Position numbers and translations under genes: made by a program. The notes beneath the pieces were generated by a model. The model had not been told where the DNA came from. It saw nothing but the letters and a program-made list of their open reading frames with translations, and made no database searches. From positions 64,822 to 128,821 of the forward strand of contig JANQMA010000026.1 of the NCBI GenBank assembly GCA_028280285.1: a stretch of 64,000 bases of DNA, given 5' to 3'. This document shows, piece after piece, positions 37,524 to 63,625 of this stretch. Numbering within the stretch: position 1 is the first letter of the stretch; each line of letters opens with the position of its first letter. This DNA is from Candidatus Omnitrophota bacterium. GTDB lineage: Bacteria > Omnitrophota > Gorgyraeia > Zapsychrales > Zapsychraceae.

Positions 37524-37572
37524 GCCTATTCAACTGACGCAGTTGAATGGGTAACGCAGTTGAATGGGTAGG
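37524..37572. repeat. hairpin of the cctattcaactg family, with the right arm tandemly duplicated
   Basis: The sequence is cctattcaactgacgcagttgaatgggtaacgcagttgaatgggtagg. Confidence 0.65.
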
Positions 37573-38771: not shown

Positions 38772-38798
38772 GCCTATTCAACTGCGGCAGTTGAATAG
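38772..38798. repeat. perfect hairpin of the cctattcaactg family, immediately after the OCD stop
   Basis: The hairpin is cctattcaactg cg gcagttgaatagg. Confidence 0.7.
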
Positions 38799-38824
38799 GT
38801 AGTATTTATATTGAGGAGAAAATT

Positions 38825-42314: not shown

Positions 42315-42515
42315 ATGATTAAAATACGTGATATAGAAAAAGCGGTGTCAAGTCTACCCAAAAAAGATTTTATGAAATTTCGTGCATGGTTTCATAAATT
42401 CGATGCGCTTAAATGGGATGAGCAGTTGAAAAAAGACGTCCACAGCGGTAAGCTGGACAAGCTTGCTGAAAGTGCGCTCAAAGATTTCAAAGATGGTAAA
42501 TGCAAAGAATTATGA
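42315..42515 (+). CDS. putative addiction-module antitoxin (small partner of RelE/ParE toxin)
   Basis: 66 aa with a WDEQL...GKLDKLAESALKDFKDGK-type C-terminus. It overlaps the downstream toxin gene by 16 nt. Confidence 0.55.
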   Translation: MIKIRDIEKAVSSLPKKDFMKFRAWFHKFDALKWDEQLKKDVHSGKLDKLAESALKDFKDGKCKEL

Positions 42516-42766
42516 AGCATTTAACCAGTCCTTCTTTTTGGAAATGTTACGAACGCCTGCCTTCATCTATTCGGAAAATAGCTGACAAAAATTTTACTTT
42601 ACTTAAGAAGAACGCAAAACACCCTTCACTTTATTTTAAGAAGATCGGCAAGTATCGTTCAGTTAGAATTGGCACCCGTCATCGAGCACTTGCGGTTGAG
42701 AATGATAAGGATTTACTCTGGTTCTGGATTGGCTCGCATGCGGATTACGATAAGCTCGTTAAATAA
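42500..42766 (+). CDS. RelE/ParE family toxin
   Basis: 88 aa. The KYRSVRIGTRHRALAVENDKDLLWFWIGSHADYDKL motif matches the RelE/ParE fold signature (R...R..Y-less ParE type). Confidence 0.7.
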   Translation: MQRIMKHLTSPSFWKCYERLPSSIRKIADKNFTLLKKNAKHPSLYFKKIGKYRSVRIGTRHRALAVENDKDLLWFWIGSHADYDKLVK

Positions 42767-43572: not shown

Positions 43573-43573
43573 G

Positions 43574-43600
43574 CCTATTCAACTGCCGCACTTGAATTGG
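43574..43600. repeat. hairpin of the cctattcaactg family, immediately after the methyltransferase stop
   Basis: The hairpin is cctattcaactgccgcacttgaattgg, with 2 mismatches. Confidence 0.65.
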
Positions 43601-43626
43601 CATCTTTATTCTGCTAGGATAGGTCC

Positions 43627-44919
43627 ATGCAATTTTACACGGATCTGCATTTGCATTCCCATTATTCCCGCGCGACGAGTAAGAACTTAAATCTGGAACA
43701 TCTTAATCTCTGGGGACAGCTCAAAGGCATTAACATTGTCGGCACCGGAGATTTTACTCATCCGGCCTGGTTTAAAGAGCTTCAGGAAAAGCTCGAGCCT
43801 GCCGAAGAGGGATTATTCAAACTTAAAAAAGAGTATCAAGAAATCGCCAAAAAAGAACTCCCCGCAGCGTGCAAGGGTGAGCTACGCTTTATGCTCACCG
43901 TTGAGATTTCTAATATTTATAAACGGCTTGATCGTGTGCGCAAGGTCCATAATGTGGTCTTTGCGCCGAGCTTTGAGGCGGCTGGAAAAATTAGAGACAG
44001 GTTGGATAAGATCGGCAATCTCAATGCCGATGGACGGCCGATTCTGGGACTCGACTCCCGCGATCTTTTGGAAATCGTACTTGAATCCGATCCGCTGAGC
44101 TATCTTGTGCCGGCGCATATCTGGACGCCGTGGTTCTCGGCCATGGGATCCAAAAGCGGATTTGATCGGATGACTGATTGCTTTGGGGATTTAAGCGATC
44201 ATATCTTTGCGGTTGAGACAGGGCTCTCATCCGATCCGACCATGAATTGGCGCTTAAGCCAACTGGATCCGTATGTGTTGGTCTCCAATGGGGACGCGCA
44301 TTCACCGCAAAAGCTTGCACGCGAGGCAACGATTTTTGACACCGAGATGTCCTATCCGGCGATTTATGATGCGCTGCGTAATCCGCAAACTAATAAAGGA
44401 CTCATTGGCACGGTCGAATTTTTTCCGGAAGAAGGCAAGTATCACTATGACGGCTGTCGTAATTGTCAGATGCGTATGCATCCAAAGGAAACGGTCGAGC
44501 ATAGCGGTGTTTGCCCGTCATGTGGTAAGCCGGTGACTGTCGGTGTTATGGCGCGTGTGGAAGAACTCGCCGATCATCCGGAAGGGCGCAAGGCGCCGAA
44601 CTGGCGGCCGTTTTTTAGTTTGATTCCATTGCCGGAGATTATCGGGGATTGTGTCGGCGTTGGTCCGAACAGTAAGACCGTGCAAAATCAATTCAGGACA
44701 TTATTATCGACGCTCGGTAATGAAATGTTTATTCTGCGTGATTGCCCACTTGATCACATTCAAAAAGCCGGTGGAGCACGTTTGGCGCAAGCGATTGAAC
44801 GGATGCGAAAAGGAGACGTTAACATTGCCGCTGGTTATGACGGGGAATACGGAAAGATTAAAATATTTTCTGCTGACGATGTTGTGCCTGAAGAAACAGA
44901 TCAGTTGACTTTATTTTGA
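43627..44919 (+). CDS. PHP-family metal-dependent phosphoesterase with C-terminal Zn ribbon (COG1379-like)
   Basis: It has N-terminal H-x-H (DLHLHSHYSRATS), further PHP His/Asp motifs (NGDAHSPQ) and a C4 Zn ribbon (CRNCQ...CPSCGKP). Confidence 0.7.
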   Translation: MQFYTDLHLHSHYSRATSKNLNLEHLNLWGQLKGINIVGTGDFTHPAWFKELQEKLEPAEEGLFKLKKEYQEIAKKELPAACKGELRFMLTVEISNIYKRLDRVRKVHNVVFAPSFEAAGKIRDRLDKIGNLNADGRPILGLDSRDLLEIVLESDPLSYLVPAHIWTPWFSAMGSKSGFDRMTDCFGDLSDHIFAVETGLSSDPTMNWRLSQLDPYVLVSNGDAHSPQKLAREATIFDTEMSYPAIYDALRNPQTNKGLIGTVEFFPEEGKYHYDGCRNCQMRMHPKETVEHSGVCPSCGKPVTVGVMARVEELADHPEGRKAPNWRPFFSLIPLPEIIGDCVGVGPNSKTVQNQFRTLLSTLGNEMFILRDCPLDHIQKAGGARLAQAIERMRKGDVNIAAGYDGEYGKIKIFSADDVVPEETDQLTLF

Positions 44920-44925
44920 AAATAA

Positions 44926-44960
44926 AAAAGGCCAGGAATAATAATTCCCGGCCTTTTTCT
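44926..44960 (+). terminator. rho-independent terminator after the PHP gene
   Basis: A ggccaggaa..ttcccggcc hairpin followed by TTTTT, 7 nt after the stop codon. Confidence 0.6.
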
Positions 44961-45009
44961 ATAGCTTAATGGCTCCCTGACTAAGATCTAATTTAAATAT
45001 ATAATAAGA

Positions 45010-46533
45010 ATGAACTCTGAGCAACAAAAATCTGTTCTTCACCGCGGCAGTCACTTACTCATCGTCGCCGGGCCCGGGACGGGCAAGACACACACCTTAA
45101 CTCACCGGATTGCCGCATTAGTTAAAGAGATTGCTGACAATAAACAAATCATTGCCATCACTTTCACTAATAAAGCGGCCGATGAAATGCGTACGCGCCT
45201 TGCTAAACTCATCAACGAAGATTTAAGTGAATGCATTGTCTGCGGAACCTTTCATCAGTTTTGCCTGCGGTTATTAAAAGAATATCAAGTGCACACATCA
45301 TTGCCCGACAATTTTCGTGTGGCATCCCCCGAAGAAATCCAAACATGCATTAAACAATCCTGGCCCGAGTTAACGAATAAAGAGAGAAAGGACCGGTTAA
45401 ACGCAATTTCCAATTGGAAATCATCGGTATTCACAGCAGAAGAACCTGAGACCGTCACCGAGTACAATCAATTATTAGCCAAAGAAGGTTTTCTTGATTT
45501 TGATGATGTGCTTTTACAGGCCTATTATCTTTTGCGGAATAATAAAGATGTTTTAGACAAAGTCCAATCCCAATATCCTACCATTTTTGTCGACGAGTAT
45601 CAGGATATTAATGGCATACAACATGCTTTGCTGAAAACTTTAGTTGGACCTAATAGTCATATAACAGCGATAGGGGATCCTAATCAAGCGATCTATGGCT
45701 TTCGCGGATCTGATGTGCGTTTTTTTCATAGTTTCGCCGAAGACTTTGCCGGGGCAACAGTTTTTTATTTATCTGATAATTACCGCTCATCACAAAATTT
45801 ATTGACTGCTTCAGGTCAAATGATTGCGCAAACCGCAAGTGCGCATGTTCCGGCCTTAACCGCACAACTTTATCAAGAAGGGCGTTTAACGATTTATCAG
45901 GCGCCAACAGATAAGGCCGAAGCCGAGTATGTTGTTCATCAAACCGAGAAGATGGTTGGCGGCACATCGATGTTTTCGCATGATTCAGGCCGCGTGCATA
46001 ATTTCGCTGAGTGCGAAATGAGTTTTGGGGATGTGGCCGTGCTTTACCGGCTTAACAGCCAGCGCCATGCGCTTATCAAAGCCTTTGACCGGATGGGTAT
46101 TCCCTATCAGGTATGCGCGAAGGCGAATATCGAAGAGGACGGCCTATCCGATGATGTCTGCCCGGAAAGGACAGAAGATGTTGATCTTGATCATGAGCGT
46201 GTGAGCCTCATGACTTTACATGCGTCCAAAGGACTTGAGTTTCCGGTTGTGTTTATTGTGGGCTGTGAAGAAAATTTGCTGCCGCTTGATATAGCCGGAC
46301 TGACATCGAGCAAAGAAGAAGAAAGGCGTTTGCTTTATGTCGGTATGACACGCGCTAAATCCCTGCTGTATCTTTGCCACAGCCAGAAGCGCATGCTCTT
46401 TGGTCAATCTCACCAGTCGAAACCATCAGAATTTCTGCAGGACATCGAGGAAGAACTTAAAAGTTACGATGTCGCTAAGCAAAAACCCAAACGCCCCGCC
46501 AAAAAAGAAGATTTCCAGATGACATTGTTTTAA
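45010..46533 (+). CDS. minimal UvrD/PcrA-like SF1 helicase (507 aa, reduced 2B domain)
   Basis: The SF1 helicase motifs are present: I (AGPGTGKT), Ia (TFTNKAADEM), II (DEYQD), III (GDPNQAIYGFRG), IV (YRSS), V (LHASKGLEFPVVFIV) and VI (YVGMTRAK). It is about 200 aa shorter than canonical UvrD. Confidence 0.85.
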   Translation: MNSEQQKSVLHRGSHLLIVAGPGTGKTHTLTHRIAALVKEIADNKQIIAITFTNKAADEMRTRLAKLINEDLSECIVCGTFHQFCLRLLKEYQVHTSLPDNFRVASPEEIQTCIKQSWPELTNKERKDRLNAISNWKSSVFTAEEPETVTEYNQLLAKEGFLDFDDVLLQAYYLLRNNKDVLDKVQSQYPTIFVDEYQDINGIQHALLKTLVGPNSHITAIGDPNQAIYGFRGSDVRFFHSFAEDFAGATVFYLSDNYRSSQNLLTASGQMIAQTASAHVPALTAQLYQEGRLTIYQAPTDKAEAEYVVHQTEKMVGGTSMFSHDSGRVHNFAECEMSFGDVAVLYRLNSQRHALIKAFDRMGIPYQVCAKANIEEDGLSDDVCPERTEDVDLDHERVSLMTLHASKGLEFPVVFIVGCEENLLPLDIAGLTSSKEEERRLLYVGMTRAKSLLYLCHSQKRMLFGQSHQSKPSEFLQDIEEELKSYDVAKQKPKRPAKKEDFQMTLF

Positions 46534-46760
46534 TGGAATGCCCACTTCGGCTGGGTATATTTCATTTTAGCAAGCAGCCTCGTGGGATAACTTCGCTGTA
46601 ACAGTTTACGTTCGTCGCGGTAATAATAATTTACAAAATCTGCTTTCGTAAATCACATTTTTTGCTTCGCAAAATAATGTGATTGTCTCCAGCAGTAAAT
46701 TCGCAGACGTTTCACTATAGTTTAGCTTCGCTGGCGCTTGCTAAACTATCTGCTCATTTA
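46534..46760 (+). repeat. degenerate relative of the 39386/42795 element (gtaaattcgcagacg...hairpin...ctgctcattt)
   Basis: It shares the gtaaattc...gtaacagtttacgtt...cattt layout and contains the hairpin tagtttagc...gctaaacta. It lies between the helicase and lptG. Confidence 0.45.
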
Positions 46761-50903: not shown

Positions 50904-52235
50904 ATGAAAAAGATAATCCTCGCCTCCAACTCGGCCCAACGCAAAAATCTGCTTAAGATGACGGGTCTTGCTTTTACGGTCAAACCATCTAATGTTGAAG
51001 AAGACAAAGTTATTACCTCCACATGTGCCGCGCTTGTGAAAAAGAATGCGTTTCTTAAAGCCCGGGATATCGCCTCGCGGCTTAAAGACGGTATTGTGAT
51101 TGGTTCTGACACAGTTGTTTATTTAGGGAAGAAAAAAATTATTCTCAAACCAAAAACGCTTAAACAAGCTAAAAGTGATCTGAAAAAGTTAATGGTGCGC
51201 CCTCAATGGGTGTATTCGGGGGTGGCCGTCATCAATGCCAAAACAGGACGCACACTCATCGATTATGAAAAGACAAAAGTGTTTATGAATAAGTTGAGTG
51301 ATAAAGAAATTAAAGCCTATCACAGAAAAGTTAATCCGCTGGATAAGGCCGGTGGGTTTGATATCGAGGGGCTTGGGAGTTTATTTATTCATCGTGTGGA
51401 AGGATGTTACACGAATGTCATTGGCATGCCGATGGCGAAATTAAAAAAGATGCTCGCCAAGTTTGGCGTCAGTATTTTAAGTGTGTTATTGGTGGTAACG
51501 GCCGGTGGATGCACGTCTGAGTTTAATCTGGCAACTAATCAGCAGGAATATCATATGTATAGCACGGCTAGAGAAGTTAAGATGGGGGCCAAGGTGGCCG
51601 CAAAGATTAATGAGAAGTTGGATCTTTATCATGGCGTTGAAGAGGATGAACGTGTGCGTGAGATCCTTGACCGTATCGTCGCGGTGTGTGACCGTCGGGA
51701 TATCCTTTATCATATCAAGATCATTGATGAAGATGTGGTCAATGCCTTTGCGCTTCCCGGAGGTTTTATTTATGTGTTTAAAGGCTTGATTGATGAGGCA
51801 GACACGGATGATGAGTTAGCCAGTGTTATTGCCCATGAAGTTGCTCATATAACAGCCCGGCATAATGTTAAGCGCCTGCAGGCCTCTTACGGGGCGATGT
51901 TGACTCAAATTGCTGCAACGAGTGTTGAACATCAAGGCTCAGCCGGTGCGGTGAGCTTTGCGATTGCGTCGATGATGAGCACTTATTCACAGGAAGCCGA
52001 GCATGAGGCCGATAGGTTATCGGTCAAATATCTGAAGGCAGCCGGCTATAATCCCAATGCCGCAGCTGATTTTCTGGAAAAGTTGAAAAAGAAAAACGAA
52101 GAGGCGGGTCCTCGCCGCTTTAGTTACTTTAAAACACATCCTAATACGGCGCGTCGTATCGGCGTTGTCCGTCAAGAAATTACCGGGCAACTTAATTTCC
52201 GCGATTATCTTAATATAACCGAAAATGAATATTAG
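50904..52235 (+). CDS. maf: Maf nucleotide pyrophosphatase fused in-frame to a lipoprotein-type M48 metallopeptidase
   Basis: The first ~185 aa are Maf (ILASNSAQRKNLL...GSDTVV...VIGMP). At residue 183 a signal peptide with a lipobox (MLAKFGVSILSVLLVVTAGGC) begins, followed by an M48 domain with HEXXH (HEVAHITARH) and a downstream E. Confidence 0.7.
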   Translation: MKKIILASNSAQRKNLLKMTGLAFTVKPSNVEEDKVITSTCAALVKKNAFLKARDIASRLKDGIVIGSDTVVYLGKKKIILKPKTLKQAKSDLKKLMVRPQWVYSGVAVINAKTGRTLIDYEKTKVFMNKLSDKEIKAYHRKVNPLDKAGGFDIEGLGSLFIHRVEGCYTNVIGMPMAKLKKMLAKFGVSILSVLLVVTAGGCTSEFNLATNQQEYHMYSTAREVKMGAKVAAKINEKLDLYHGVEEDERVREILDRIVAVCDRRDILYHIKIIDEDVVNAFALPGGFIYVFKGLIDEADTDDELASVIAHEVAHITARHNVKRLQASYGAMLTQIAATSVEHQGSAGAVSFAIASMMSTYSQEAEHEADRLSVKYLKAAGYNPNAAADFLEKLKKKNEEAGPRRFSYFKTHPNTARRIGVVRQEITGQLNFRDYLNITENEY

Positions 52236-59948: not shown

Positions 59949-61577
59949 ATGGCTCAAATGAAACGGTTTTTAGCGGAAATTGAAGAAAAAAAGGGAATTT
60001 TGTACGTATTTTTGACCGTTGCGACGTTTTCCGTGTACAGTTTTTCCTTACCTAACGGCTTTATTTGGGACGATTATATGGTCCTGGTGGACAATACATT
60101 TGTTCATGACCTTGTGCGTTTACCCGAAGTATTCACCAAAGACTACATCACCTCACCGAAAAATCTTCCTTTTATCGATACAGGGGAATACGGTTCCGGA
60201 GAAGGCAGCTACCGGCCGGTGACCACCTTGATCCATTTTTTGGAATACCGGCTCTGGGGGCTGACACCGTTTTTCTATCATTTGGTCAATGTGGTCTTGC
60301 ATTGCATTATGGTTTGTTTGGTGTTTTGTGTGCTTGAGCTTTTATTTAAAAATCTTTTTATTTCCCTTGTGACGGCCTTGCTGTTTGCGGTTAACCCGGC
60401 CCATAGTGAGGCTGTTTTGACCATATCGTTTCGGGAGGATTTACTGTGCGGCATGTTTTTTATGGCCGCGTTTATTTGTTTTATTAAAGTGTCTGATCAA
60501 AAAAAGCCGCTCTTTTTGATTTTTTCTATTTTGTTTTACTTACTTGCCCTTTTTTCCAAAGAAATGGCGATTACATTTCCGGTTGTATGTATTTACTATG
60601 AGTATTTTTACAAACGAAACAGGTTTGCTACGGCTGATGCGCTCAGACTTTTTGGCGGCCTTGTTCTTGCTTCGGGTTTTTATTTATGGGTGCGTTTTGT
60701 TATGTTTGCCCCGGCGGCCAGTTTTAAAGCGCTGCATCCATCGGACTCGTTTGGTATCAATGTACTTACAATGATCAAGGTAGTGGGTATGTATTTCGGA
60801 TGGCTTTTAACCGGGCTTAATGTTCATCTCACCAAACCTGATCCTTATCTGATCGAGGTATTTTCTAACTTTTCTTCTATTATTGTTTTTGTTGCTATTG
60901 TTCTGACTTGGATATTGTCTTTATTTTTGTCGTTGCCAAAGCGCCCTTTTTTTCAGTTCTCGCTTGTCTGGTTTTTTGTCACAATTCTTCCGGTTTTGGG
61001 CATCATTCCGATTCACAATATTGTGGCCGGACGGTACCTTTATATTCCTTCTATAGGTTTTTTGCTGATGATTACAGGGTTACTGTGGCTTATTAGAAAT
61101 AAACAATTGCAGGTTGTTGGGGTTGTTTTATATGTTGTATTTTTAAGTGTTTTAACCATCGCGCGCGCGTTTATCCTGTATGATGAGTTAACGGCCCGGA
61201 AGGAGTTTGTGCAGTATTATCCGCAGGATCCGCTCAGTTATCGCTCTTTGAGCGCGGCGTATACGCGCCTGGGGCTCGACGATCATGCGACCGGTGTGCT
61301 GGCGCGGGCGGTCGAATATTTTTCTGACGACTTTAATTTACATATGGATTTGGCCCGGGCTTACCGCAAGGAAGGCGAATACCAAAAAGCATTGGATGTT
61401 CTGGGTAAAGTCTTAGGGGAAGATCCTGGCAACTATTATTTGTTAAACGAGAAATGTATTAATTTGGCTCTATTAAAGAAAAAAGAAGAGGCAGCAGCTT
61501 GTTTTGAAAAGATTTTCATGCTTTTTCCCGATGACAAAGTCGCCAAGGAGAATTTTAGGCGCTTTAAACAATATTAA
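59949..61577 (+). CDS. TMTC-like membrane protein (DUF1736 N-terminal polytopic domain + C-terminal TPR repeats), putative protein O-glycosyltransferase
   Basis: It has about 10 TM helices with a conserved DD in the first loop (FIWDDYMV), then TPR repeats (YRKEGEYQKALDVLGK). Confidence 0.55.
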   Translation: MAQMKRFLAEIEEKKGILYVFLTVATFSVYSFSLPNGFIWDDYMVLVDNTFVHDLVRLPEVFTKDYITSPKNLPFIDTGEYGSGEGSYRPVTTLIHFLEYRLWGLTPFFYHLVNVVLHCIMVCLVFCVLELLFKNLFISLVTALLFAVNPAHSEAVLTISFREDLLCGMFFMAAFICFIKVSDQKKPLFLIFSILFYLLALFSKEMAITFPVVCIYYEYFYKRNRFATADALRLFGGLVLASGFYLWVRFVMFAPAASFKALHPSDSFGINVLTMIKVVGMYFGWLLTGLNVHLTKPDPYLIEVFSNFSSIIVFVAIVLTWILSLFLSLPKRPFFQFSLVWFFVTILPVLGIIPIHNIVAGRYLYIPSIGFLLMITGLLWLIRNKQLQVVGVVLYVVFLSVLTIARAFILYDELTARKEFVQYYPQDPLSYRSLSAAYTRLGLDDHATGVLARAVEYFSDDFNLHMDLARAYRKEGEYQKALDVLGKVLGEDPGNYYLLNEKCINLALLKKKEEAAACFEKIFMLFPDDKVAKENFRRFKQY

Positions 61578-61598: not shown

Positions 61599-62054
61599 AT
61601 GGGAGAGACAATTGCGACAAACAAAAAGGCCTTCCGCGATTTTGCGATTACCGAGAAGTGGGAGTGCGGGCTTGAGCTCATGGGGGCGGAAGTTAAGTCG
61701 GTGCGCAGCGGGCGTGTGAATTTTAAGGATACATTTGCGCGCATTGATGGGGGACAGGTATTTCTTCATAATCTTCATATTGAGAATTACGCGCAAGCGA
61801 GTTATATGAATGAAGCGGAAGATCGTGTTAGAAGGCTTTTGTTACATAAAAGGGAAATAAAGAAGATTGATCAAAAGGCCAGAGAAAAGGGGCTTACTCT
61901 TGTGCCGACCAAGGTCTACTTTAACAAACGTGGTTATGTGAAAGTCGAGATTGGTTTAGGCAAGGGTAAAAAGATGATTGATAAAAGAGAGACGATTAAG
62001 AAGCGTGATGTTAGTCGTGATATTGGACGGATGGTCAAACATAAGAATAGATAG
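61599..62054 (+). CDS. smpB: SsrA-binding protein SmpB
   Basis: The SmpB motifs (IATNKKAFRDFAI and GAEVKSVRSGRVNFKD), a KRE..K C-terminal tail, and the size fit. Confidence 0.9.
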   Translation: MGETIATNKKAFRDFAITEKWECGLELMGAEVKSVRSGRVNFKDTFARIDGGQVFLHNLHIENYAQASYMNEAEDRVRRLLLHKREIKKIDQKAREKGLTLVPTKVYFNKRGYVKVEIGLGKGKKMIDKRETIKKRDVSRDIGRMVKHKNR

Positions 62055-62068
62055 AAAATATTATTTTT

Positions 62069-63625
62069 ATGAACAAATCGACTCTAATTCCTTTATTTTT
62101 AATTTTATTTGTTTCACTTTTTTTAAGGATCTACGGGCTTAATCAGCAAGGACTCACCTTCATCGACGAGGGAACCTTTATTTATCGCGCCAAGACATTT
62201 CAACTTTTGGCCGAGCATTCCCATAATCCCATCCAACAGCCTGCCAATTACGCGGATAAAAAAATACTCTGGCTCCTTTCGGTTATGGCCGTATTGAGCC
62301 TAACGGATGGCTCGACGATTGCTGTTCAGCTTTTTTCCGTGTTGCTGGGCTTGCTTAGTATACTGTTTACCTTCGTTGTGGCCCAAAAGATTTATGGCTC
62401 AAGGGAAATAGGGTTATTAAGCGCAGCTGTTCTCGGTGTGTCTAATTTGCATATTTTCTACAGTCGTCTGGCCATGCCCGAGATGTTGAATTCGTTTTGG
62501 GTATTATTGATGGTTTTATTTTATTTGAATGCCATGGCGAAAGAAAAATCTGGCCGGTGGGCTTTTGCCTCAGGTGTCATGATGAGCTTTTCCTTTTTAA
62601 CAAATGTCTTTCGGGCCGGACTTATGCCCATTGCACTTCTCTTTATGAATTTTGGAATCGGATTACCTAAGACTTTTAAAACCAACAAAGATAAAACGCG
62701 GTGGGGGTTATATCTTTTAACGGCTGTTTTGTCGACGGTCGTTTTGGTTTTCGGTTTATGGCAGGTCTTAAAAATACAAGGCATTTGGTTATCCCCTTAT
62801 GCCGATGCTGTCAAATCATATATTGGCCAGCATTCTTCGGTGGTTTTCAGTTGGCCATCATTTTTGTATGCGTTAAGTTATATATTTTTTACCGAAGGTA
62901 AACATTATGCCGTCGTATTTTTTTGGGGATTATTTTTTATAAGAGGACGTTACTCAACATTGCTTCCGCTTCTGATTATCGGGCCTTATGTCTTAGCCTG
63001 GGCCTTTGTGGATGAGAAGGCGATCCGTGCATTGACGCCTGTATTGCCTTTCATCGCTATGTATGCAGCAGTAACCATTTATAACATCTATGGGCTTTTT
63101 AAGCCGCGATCACGGTTGCTCTTGATGGCGGCGATTGGGCTTTTGATCGTCGGGCAATTGGTGGGTTTGAGGAAAATTTATACCTTCCGCTCTGATCTTC
63201 TCCCGGCAATCGAATATATAAAACAGAAAAATGCAGGCGCGCGTGTTCTAACCACCAATCAACCGATTGCCCTGGCGCACGATTTTGATTTTCATCGTTA
63301 TGCCCAGCTTACCCAGCAGACCGAAGAGGAGGTGCGGATATTAAACCGGCAAGGGTTTAACTATTTGATAACAGATTTTGTTAAGTATGCGGTCAGTTCG
63401 GTTAATGGTTCCGATGGTATTCATATGAATCCATTTGTTATGAAGGTGGAGAAGAACTGCATCCCGCTTAAAACATTCCCGCATTTCAATGAAGGCCTGC
63501 AACGCTGGATGCTGATGGAGGTTAATCAGTATGCCGGTGATGTCATTTGGCTTGATCACCATATCACTAACCAAACCGGCCAACTTAGAGTCTACGATCT
63601 CGATCGGTGTTTGGAGAAGATATAA
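62069..63625 (+). CDS. GT-C fold membrane glycosyltransferase (PMT/ArnT, GT39/GT83-like)
   Basis: 518 aa with multiple TM helices, an acidic motif in the first periplasmic loop (FIDEGTF) and a soluble C-terminal domain. Confidence 0.55.
   Translation: MNKSTLIPLFLILFVSLFLRIYGLNQQGLTFIDEGTFIYRAKTFQLLAEHSHNPIQQPANYADKKILWLLSVMAVLSLTDGSTIAVQLFSVLLGLLSILFTFVVAQKIYGSREIGLLSAAVLGVSNLHIFYSRLAMPEMLNSFWVLLMVLFYLNAMAKEKSGRWAFASGVMMSFSFLTNVFRAGLMPIALLFMNFGIGLPKTFKTNKDKTRWGLYLLTAVLSTVVLVFGLWQVLKIQGIWLSPYADAVKSYIGQHSSVVFSWPSFLYALSYIFFTEGKHYAVVFFWGLFFIRGRYSTLLPLLIIGPYVLAWAFVDEKAIRALTPVLPFIAMYAAVTIYNIYGLFKPRSRLLLMAAIGLLIVGQLVGLRKIYTFRSDLLPAIEYIKQKNAGARVLTTNQPIALAHDFDFHRYAQLTQQTEEEVRILNRQGFNYLITDFVKYAVSSVNGSDGIHMNPFVMKVEKNCIPLKTFPHFNEGLQRWMLMEVNQYAGDVIWLDHHITNQTGQLRVYDLDRCLEKI

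Follow-up and report, generated by a model that had tools for sequence, protein, structure and literature searches.

A bacterial endonuclease Q homologue paired with a UvrD/PcrA-like helicase lacking the 2B domain: a probable DNA-repair module in Candidatus Omnitrophota

We analyzed a 64,000-nucleotide stretch of contig JANQMA010000026.1 from the Candidatus Omnitrophota assembly GCA_028280285.1 (positions 64,822 to 128,821 of the forward strand; hereafter the window), in which two adjacent, co-directional genes encode a homologue of endonuclease Q (EndoQ) and a short UvrD/PcrA-like helicase of superfamily 1A (SF1A). A preliminary description of this DNA, prepared from the letters alone, had recognized a PHP-family phosphoesterase gene beside a gene for a minimal UvrD-like helicase. 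Its reading of the two open reading frames (ORFs) was exact: they span 43627-44919 and 45010-46533, and the DLHLHSH, NGDAHS, GCRNCQ and CPSCGKP motifs are present in the translation. The two genes and their parts, with the basis of each assignment in brackets, are as follows.

43627..44919, + strand: endoQ, encoding an EndoQ homologue of 430 residues with PHP catalytic, zinc-finger and C-terminal helical domains (phmmer, TIGR00375, conserved residues).
44455..44523, + strand: C4 zinc finger of EndoQ, C277, C280, C296 and C299 (alignment to PfuEndoQ).
44902..44916, + strand: C-terminal QLTLF of EndoQ, a pentapeptide of the beta-clamp-binding type (motif conserved in homologues).
45010..46533, + strand: EndoQ-associated SF1A helicase of 507 residues with domains 1A, 1B and 2A, lacking 2B and the C-terminal Tudor-like tail (Pfam, PcrA alignment, AlphaFold).
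45067..45090, + strand: Walker A (motif I) of the helicase, AGPGTGKT, A20-T27 (translation; invariant in relatives).
46120..46188, + strand: disordered linker of 23 residues (371-393) at the 2B position of the helicase (gap in the PcrA alignment, pLDDT).
46516..46530, + strand: C-terminal QMTLF of the helicase, following a Lys/Arg-rich tail, a pentapeptide of the beta-clamp-binding type (motif conserved in homologues).

Searching with gene 1 using phmmer returned the Pyrococcus EndoQ structures 5zb8 and 7k30 with an E value of 5.6e-51, residues 5-413 of the query aligning with residues 5-382 of 400. The protein is 34% identical to Pyrococcus furiosus EndoQ (PfuEndoQ) and also matches the NCBIfam model TIGR00375 (E 3.4e-53, 181.4 bits). 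It had no match in the copy of Pfam that was searched, while its homologues at 71-76% identity, from Candidatus Omnitrophota metagenome-assembled genomes (MAGs), are named 'endonuclease Q family protein' by NCBI and carry Pfam PF27218 (MJ0043_C).

The residues on which EndoQ activity depends are retained. E76, H84 and H139 of PfuEndoQ are zinc ligands whose mutation abolishes activity (PMC8307549); they correspond to E93, H108 and H164 of the window protein, and the PHP-motif ligands H8, H10, D193 and H195 correspond to H8, H10, D223 and H225. All of these catalytic metal ligands are invariant in the EndoQ family alignment. The lesion-pocket residues H139, G169 and S171, which keep out T and A (PMC8307549), are equivalent to H164, G199 and S201 in the window protein. 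In the zinc finger, C277, C280, C296 and C299 align with C249, C252, C268 and C271 of PfuEndoQ, and the last three are invariant in the family. Because the match to PfuEndoQ is full-length and the catalytic, pocket and zinc-finger residues are all conserved, we assign gene 1, from its sequence, as a full-length bacterial EndoQ homologue. EndoQ cuts immediately 5' of deoxyuridine (dU), deoxyinosine (dI), deoxyxanthosine (dX) and abasic (AP) sites (PMC4357722), and by homology the window enzyme should nick at the same position. The alternative of a general PHP phosphoesterase like those of Pol X or Pol III was rejected, as the PDB and NCBIfam searches give EndoQ over the full length of the protein. 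Thus the PHP fold and the C4 finger of the preliminary description stand, but the generic family name gives way to a more precise identity.

The first ligand of the zinc finger varies within the family. It is Cys in both the window protein (C277, nucleotides 44455-44457) and PfuEndoQ, but His (DGHRKC) in nine aligned bacterial relatives of the fusion type described below; the finger is therefore of the C4 type in the window protein and HC3 in those relatives.

Gene 2 encodes a helicase whose Pfam matches are UvrD-helicase (E 7e-69) and UvrD_C (E 1e-35). It aligns with residues 12-382 and 555-648 of the 724-residue PcrA (E 1e-67), leaving PcrA residues 383-554, the 2B domain of ~170 residues, without a counterpart. 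The last ~75 residues of PcrA are likewise missing; domain 2A is followed only by ~20 basic residues and QMTLF. In the AlphaFold model (mean predicted local distance difference test score, pLDDT, of 84) residues 371-393 form a disordered loop at the 2B position with pLDDT below 50, and the best fold matches of the model are UvrD, PcrA, Mycobacterium UvrD1 and Rep (E ~1e-32). The motifs of superfamily 1 (SF1) are nonetheless intact: G21-T27, T51-T53, D195/E196/Q198/D199, G222-G233, N257/R259, H404-F411 and Y443-R448 are invariant in an alignment of 51 family members, including Walker A residues G21, P22, G23, G25, K26 and T27. The alignment gap, the invariant motifs and the modelled loop bear out the earlier suggestion of a 507-residue SF1 helicase with all UvrD/PcrA motifs, shortened at 2B and at the C-terminus. 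Scored against the NCBIfam models, gene 2 falls below every cut-off, reaching 358.8 of 911.2 bits for PcrA, 318.1 of 1144.45 for UvrD and 318.5 of 951.45 for Rep. We class gene 2 as an SF1A (UvrD/PcrA/Rep-like) helicase outside the PcrA, UvrD and Rep equivalogs.

In Rep and UvrD the 2B domain has an auto-inhibitory role and binds partners, and the C-terminal Tudor-like tail of PcrA and UvrD binds RNA polymerase; housekeeping UvrD and PcrA use both regions for contacts with partners and RNA polymerase. Cheng in 2002 and Brendza in 2005 (PNAS) reportedly described Rep with 2B deleted as an active, de-repressed monomer. Among the EndoQ-linked relatives of gene 2 (see below) the insert at the 2B position is absent, ~55-87 residues or ~100-149 residues long, compared with ~170 in PcrA. 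Forms that lack 2B occur both split from EndoQ, in the window, in Omnitrophota and "Planctomycetales" MAGs (L003, L004, L007) and in Gastranaerophilales (L071), and fused to it, in proteins of ~960 residues. The family provides naturally occurring SF1A helicases in which the regulatory 2B domain is lost to different degrees.

The adjacency of the two genes recurs widely. A search of 1.84 billion cluster representatives at 50% identity found 3,867 EndoQ relatives, and 146 of the best 150 are EndoQ-helicase fusions, with a median length of ~1,090 residues and EndoQ at the N-terminus followed by the UvrD-helicase and UvrD_C domains. A second scan, with one genome per species, identified at least 546 EndoQ-encoding bacterial species from many phyla, and we classified the best 80 loci, which hold the nearest relatives of the window EndoQ (54-65% identity) and represent more than 12 phyla. 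These comprise KSB1, Latescibacterota, Planctomycetota, Omnitrophota, Chloroflexota, Actinomycetota (Micromonospora, Streptomyces, Kutzneria and others), Myxococcota (Sorangium), Desulfobacterota (Desulfonema magnum), Binatia, Bacteroidota, Nitrospirota, Gastranaerophilales and Peribacteria. EndoQ and helicase are linked at 73 of the 80 nearest loci (91%): fused in one ORF of ~1,100 residues at 62, present as fusions broken by a frameshift or stop at three, and encoded by consecutive genes with the helicase downstream at eight. One further locus runs off its contig.

Many of the top EndoQ and helicase homologues also lie on contigs of equal length, and the adjacency is beyond chance. In an Omnitrophota relative with 76% identity the pair is retained while every flanking gene differs. 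When the 847 flanking ORFs from the 80 loci were clustered, no ligase, polymerase, exonuclease or other third gene emerged as a conserved partner, the next family occurring at no more than 11 of the 80 loci. Because EndoQ and the helicase are a single fused protein in most related genomes, the proposal that the two genes constitute a functional nuclease-helicase module is strongly supported, and the neighbourhood comparison across genomes that had been suggested as its check came out in its favour.

Two side observations concern the linked loci. In the 76%-identical Omnitrophota relative a 176-residue ORF with no Pfam match separates endoQ from the helicase gene, whose start it overlaps (L081, 11307-11837, and L082, 8905-9435); this ORF may be a small inserted gene or may be artefactual. 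In addition, NCBI and JGI label several EndoQ-only proteins of ~430 residues (P0053, P0078, P0110) 'DNA helicase UvrD' or 'PcrA', names that were probably inherited from fusion proteins. P0089 (496 residues, 'DNA helicase UvrD, partial') may be a similar misnaming or a truncated fusion.

As a reverse test we scanned metagenomes with the helicase family alignment and examined 80 of the loci, which are mostly generic UvrD-like and serve as a control, not a census. EndoQ lies directly upstream of the helicase at 16 of these loci, 10 of them within the 16 best-scoring, while the UvrD-like genes at 30% identity mostly lack an upstream EndoQ. A neighbour-joining tree of 138 helicase sequences, which has no bootstrap support and is indicative only, places 80 of 81 EndoQ-linked helicases, the window protein among them, in one clade; the 43 helicases whose loci are known to have no EndoQ all fall outside it. 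The tree and the low scores against the PcrA, UvrD and Rep models place the window helicase in a subfamily dedicated to EndoQ, as judged by sequence, and not with housekeeping UvrD/PcrA; the preliminary description had named a housekeeping orthologue as the finding that would count against a module, and the module survives that comparison. The sole EndoQ-adjacent helicase outside the clade belongs to Candidatus Peribacteria (L068, 1914-5145); it may have been recruited separately, or its placement may be long-branch noise.

The last residues of each window protein form a short motif of the kind that binds the beta sliding clamp: QLTLF in EndoQ and QMTLF in the helicase. Of 120 EndoQ homologues, 105 carry a Q[LM]x[LF]F motif that is C-terminal or no more than four residues from the C-terminus, as do 109 of 120 helicase homologues, and Q503 and F507 of the helicase are invariant in the 51-sequence alignment. 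The fusion proteins carry a C-terminal motif of this type in 160 of 191 cases, and a second motif stands at a fixed position 10 residues past the EndoQ domain in 104 of 182, compared with 3% in shuffled sequences. As a dimer, the beta clamp has two clefts, which makes a shared-clamp arrangement plausible, with EndoQ and the helicase occupying one clamp. Archaeal EndoQ is known to bind PCNA through a C-terminal PCNA-interacting (PIP) box, with PCNA stimulating its activity, and the same study noted that bacterial EndoQ homologues carry C-terminal beta-clamp motifs (PMC4858679); the helicase motif and the pattern of two motifs per module are not mentioned there.

The homologies, the conserved active-site residues, the pattern of fusion and adjacency, the separate helicase clade and the conservation of the motifs are direct observations. 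On this basis we consider it likely that the pair is a clamp-tethered nick-and-unwind DNA-repair module, a variant of EndoQ-initiated repair. The enzyme activities, clamp binding, helicase polarity, loading strand and order of steps that we infer are as follows. EndoQ, a Zn-dependent enzyme of the PHP fold, would by homology flip out a deaminated or abasic nucleotide (dU, dI, dX or an AP site). Both proteins would dock on the sliding clamp, plausibly one in each cleft of the beta dimer. The EndoQ nick immediately 5' of the lesion would leave a 3'-OH and a 5'-phosphate bearing the lesion. The helicase would be a dedicated EndoQ partner, a UvrD/PcrA-like 3'-5' SF1A enzyme that has lost 2B and the RNA-polymerase-binding tail; it would load at the nick (the intact strand being the simplest choice), travel 3'-5' and peel off the strand with the lesion at its 5' end. 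A clamp-bound polymerase could then extend the 3'-OH, a 5' nuclease could trim the displaced strand, and ligase could seal the nick. A helicase step after EndoQ incision has been drawn as one option for archaea, where removal was proposed to proceed by polymerase strand displacement or by an unnamed helicase (PMC4357722).

UvrD-type helicases are known as protein-displacement motors, and a covalent fusion would fit equally well a motor that moves or releases the nuclease. The helicase might thus act on EndoQ itself, stripping it off the nicked product or opening the duplex for inspection, with excision left to strand displacement by a polymerase. EndoQ sharply bends DNA, flips the damaged nucleotide and is active on both single-stranded and duplex DNA (PMC8307549), which is in keeping with such a role. 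However, archaeal EndoQ works with PCNA alone and the Bacillus-type enzyme has no linked helicase, so turnover generally appears helicase-independent. This explanation and the nick-and-unwind model draw on identical comparative evidence, and nothing here separates them; we regard action on EndoQ as unlikely.

Several observations weigh against the nick-and-unwind module. The TIGR00375 score of gene 1 (181.4 bits) is below the curated cut-off of 326.6. The 91% linkage describes the best 80 of at least 546 species and not the whole EndoQ family, and six of these 80 loci have no helicase. The characterized Bacillales-type EndoQ stands alone with neither a helicase neighbour nor a clamp motif, and the more distant Bacillales and archaeal EndoQs are also stand-alone. 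EndoQ therefore does not always need the helicase. The clamp-type motif is only five residues long, the strand on which the helicase loads and the direction in which it unwinds are assumptions, and a strong terminator-like hairpin lies between the two genes in the window.

That hairpin belongs to a second set of features, all of them outside the coding sequences.

44925..44958, + strand: intergenic GC-rich hairpin with intrinsic-terminator features (sequence and RNA fold).
44977..45005, + strand: promoter-like CTGACT-17-TATAAT just 5' of the helicase start codon (consensus scan, 10/12 matches; a consensus match only).
46538..46558, + strand: terminator-like hairpin and T-run 3' of the helicase gene (pattern scan and fold).
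43573..43601, + strand: imperfect palindromic hairpin 3' of the upstream methyltransferase gene (sequence and repeat copies).

The intergenic hairpin at 44925-44958 folds with an energy of -18 kcal/mol (z -4.39, equalled by none of 200 shuffles) and has an A-run before it and a U-run after it, in agreement with the terminator reported earlier between the genes. Expression of endoQ and the helicase may therefore be uncoupled, and the terminator together with the promoter-like site suggests that this lineage can express the two halves separately. At the helicase start codon (45000-45012) there is no Shine-Dalgarno sequence and the codon lies 4 nucleotides past a perfect TATAAT box; the helicase transcript might therefore be leaderless.

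The same two features are in line with genes that are independent here, the helicase serving as a general substitute for UvrD/PcrA in nucleotide excision repair, mismatch repair or replication/transcription conflicts and merely lying beside endoQ. Its SF1A motifs are all intact, and there is no second UvrD-like (or EndoQ) gene within the 64-kb window, although the window is a small fraction of the genome and the lack of another helicase there is thus weak evidence. Against independence, the helicase belongs to a clade whose members are joined to EndoQ as fusions in most lineages, its scores fall well short of the PcrA, UvrD and Rep cut-offs, and it lacks 2B and the C-terminal tail. We consider independence highly improbable.

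A defence function was the other possibility raised for the pair, by analogy with GajB and GajA of the Gabija system. In such an anti-phage module EndoQ would nick phage DNA containing uracil or another non-canonical base and the helicase would unwind and expose it for degradation. A review cites a paper on Bacillus pumilus EndoQ for a possible antiviral role of the Bacillus enzyme, which would concern phages with uracil in their DNA, and another study cited in it found that EndoQ activity is not inhibited by the phage Ugi protein (PMC8307549). The window helicase matches the PADLOC GajB models (E 6e-88), a ParE-like toxin gene lies ~0.9 kb upstream, and the pair moves as a unit between differing genomic contexts. 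However, the GajB models fit any UvrD-like helicase and also match the helicase half of the EndoQ fusion. Solved GajB matches only residues 183-272 of the window helicase (E 5.6e-18, versus 1e-67 for PcrA), is absent from its 50 best fold matches and retains the 2B domain (PMC10781630); the analogy seems superficial. EndoQ itself has no PADLOC match, and there is no GajA or other OLD-family ATPase-TOPRIM nuclease among the surrounding ORFs.

EndoQ was found in 0 of 50,697 phage records and on one of 72,556 plasmids, a 733-kb Brevibacillus replicon where EndoQ has a NUDIX gene as its neighbour, without a helicase, and lacks the clamp motif. Across the 80 nearest EndoQ loci no defence gene was repeatedly present beside the module. 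The genes around the pair in the window have housekeeping functions: LptF/LptG, a phosphoribosyltransferase, a Maf-M48 fusion, a short-chain dehydrogenase (SDR), a HAD hydrolase, AhpC/TSA and an ornithine-cyclodeaminase-like gene. Clamp-binding motifs, in turn, are typical of replication and repair proteins. Because EndoQ lacks a PADLOC match, is absent from the phage records and is nearly absent from plasmids, and because the neighbours are housekeeping genes and the motifs are of the clamp type, repair is favoured; of the two alternatives offered earlier, repair or defence, DNA repair fits and defence is unlikely. An anti-phage role of the kind outlined above we hold to be very unlikely.

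Two candidate assignments were set aside. Gabija or another defence system was rejected on the missing PADLOC match of EndoQ, the lack of GajA and the non-specific GajB models. Mobile-element cargo was rejected on the zero phage records, the single plasmid record (the 733-kb replicon) and a claim of flanking repeats that is half true. That claim had the pair bracketed by repeat elements. The upstream hairpin at 43573-43601 (-9.6 kcal/mol, z -1.6 by RNA fold) is indeed repeated, with copies at 38772-38800 (3 mismatches, 0 expected by chance) and 37524-37548. The sequence after 46534, in contrast, has no second copy within the 64-kb window; the hairpin at 46538-46558 (-11.1 kcal/mol, z -1.85) looks like an ordinary terminator. 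Because this stretch is single-copy and resembles an ordinary terminator, the endoQ/helicase pair is not bracketed by repeats.

The hairpin at 43573-43601 is probably the terminator of the upstream methyltransferase gene and lies outside the module proper. Its three copies, each ~25-29 nucleotides long with the palindromic core CCTATTCAACTGCCGCA.TTGAAT.GG, stand just before or after genes in the window, and may represent a repetitive extragenic palindromic (REP)-like element or a common terminator family.

The toxin and methyltransferase genes that lie upstream of the pair were both identified using Pfam. The toxin ORF, of 88 residues, is ParE-like (PF24732, E 1e-7). A 66-residue ORF without a Pfam match overlaps it by 16 nucleotides (42315-42766, + strand), and the two are probably a toxin-antitoxin pair whose antitoxin is unclassified. 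The methyltransferase belongs to the class I S-adenosylmethionine (SAM) enzymes of the small-molecule type; its top Pfam matches are generic class I SAM domains and UbiE/COQ5, and it is not recognizable as a DNA methyltransferase by Pfam. The Maf-M48 fusion further downstream is a single ORF of 443 residues (50904-52235, + strand) with a complete Maf-like domain (residues 3-187) and a peptidase M48 domain (247-424). The window contained no tRNA and no Rfam match. Two segments, 60001-61000 and 62001-63000, have a strong negative AT skew (-0.365 and -0.21) relative to the rest of the window.

We found no description of an EndoQ-helicase fusion or operon in the open-access literature searched; the link is thus undescribed as far as searched, and the association is visible in public domain-architecture data. 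In that literature bacterial EndoQ is described only as a stand-alone enzyme in "a few bacteria". The literature places EndoQ in archaea and a few bacteria (Bacillus, Desulfovibrio), and the at least 546 bacterial species found here indicate a wider distribution than reported. In the nearest relatives, fusion to one particular UvrD-type helicase points to the enzyme that probably acts after the EndoQ nick in bacteria, makes the EndoQ pathway testable via one recombinant protein, and may be a case of two repair activities on one beta clamp. It also allows two annotations to be corrected, 'DNA helicase UvrD' on EndoQ-only proteins and 'ATP-dependent helicase' on the partner. More speculatively, EndoQ and its own SF1A helicase could constitute a widespread bacterial nick-unwind excision pathway for deaminated and abasic bases, with incision, removal and resynthesis on one clamp dimer, of which the Omnitrophota version would be split and its 2B-less helicase constitutively active; we put this forward tentatively.

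Compared with the characterized EndoQs (PfuEndoQ, TkoEndoQ and those of Methanosarcina and Bacillus pumilus), the product of gene 1 has the same layout of PHP domain, zinc finger and C-terminal helical domain, and its clamp-type motif occupies the C-terminal position of the archaeal PIP box. Those enzymes are stand-alone, whereas EndoQ of the window and of most related bacteria is coupled or fused to a helicase of the SF1A type. Bacillales EndoQ differs from the window EndoQ in having neither a helicase neighbour nor a clamp motif. The window helicase, for its part, shares domains 1A, 1B and 2A and all seven motifs with UvrD, PcrA and Rep, but has no 2B domain or C-terminal tail, belongs to a separate EndoQ-tied clade and carries its own clamp-type motif. 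It would be a natural counterpart of the engineered Rep lacking 2B. In nucleotide excision repair and mismatch repair UvrD follows an endonuclease nick, the same post-nick role that we propose for the window helicase.

Gabija is also a two-gene system of a nuclease and a UvrD-like helicase, but its nuclease is the OLD/TOPRIM protein GajA, whereas the helicase partner in the window is EndoQ, outside a defence context. E. coli Lhr, an SF2 helicase, offers another parallel. With its helicase and uracil-DNA glycosylase domains, Lhr likewise covalently joins a helicase to a uracil-recognizing enzyme (PMC10953399). In Lhr the lesion enzyme is a glycosylase, whereas the EndoQ module combines an SF1A helicase with a lesion endonuclease that would cut the backbone, and the domain order and families are unrelated. 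A further parallel is mismatch repair, in which MutS/MutL, the beta clamp and UvrD likewise combine a nick, unwinding by a UvrD-family helicase and beta-clamp pentapeptides. The clamp motif of MutS is QMSLF, nearly identical to the QMTLF of the window helicase. The module differs from mismatch repair in that EndoQ itself would recognize the lesion, no MutS or MutL homologues take part, and the helicase carries its own clamp-type motif in place of recruitment by MutL.

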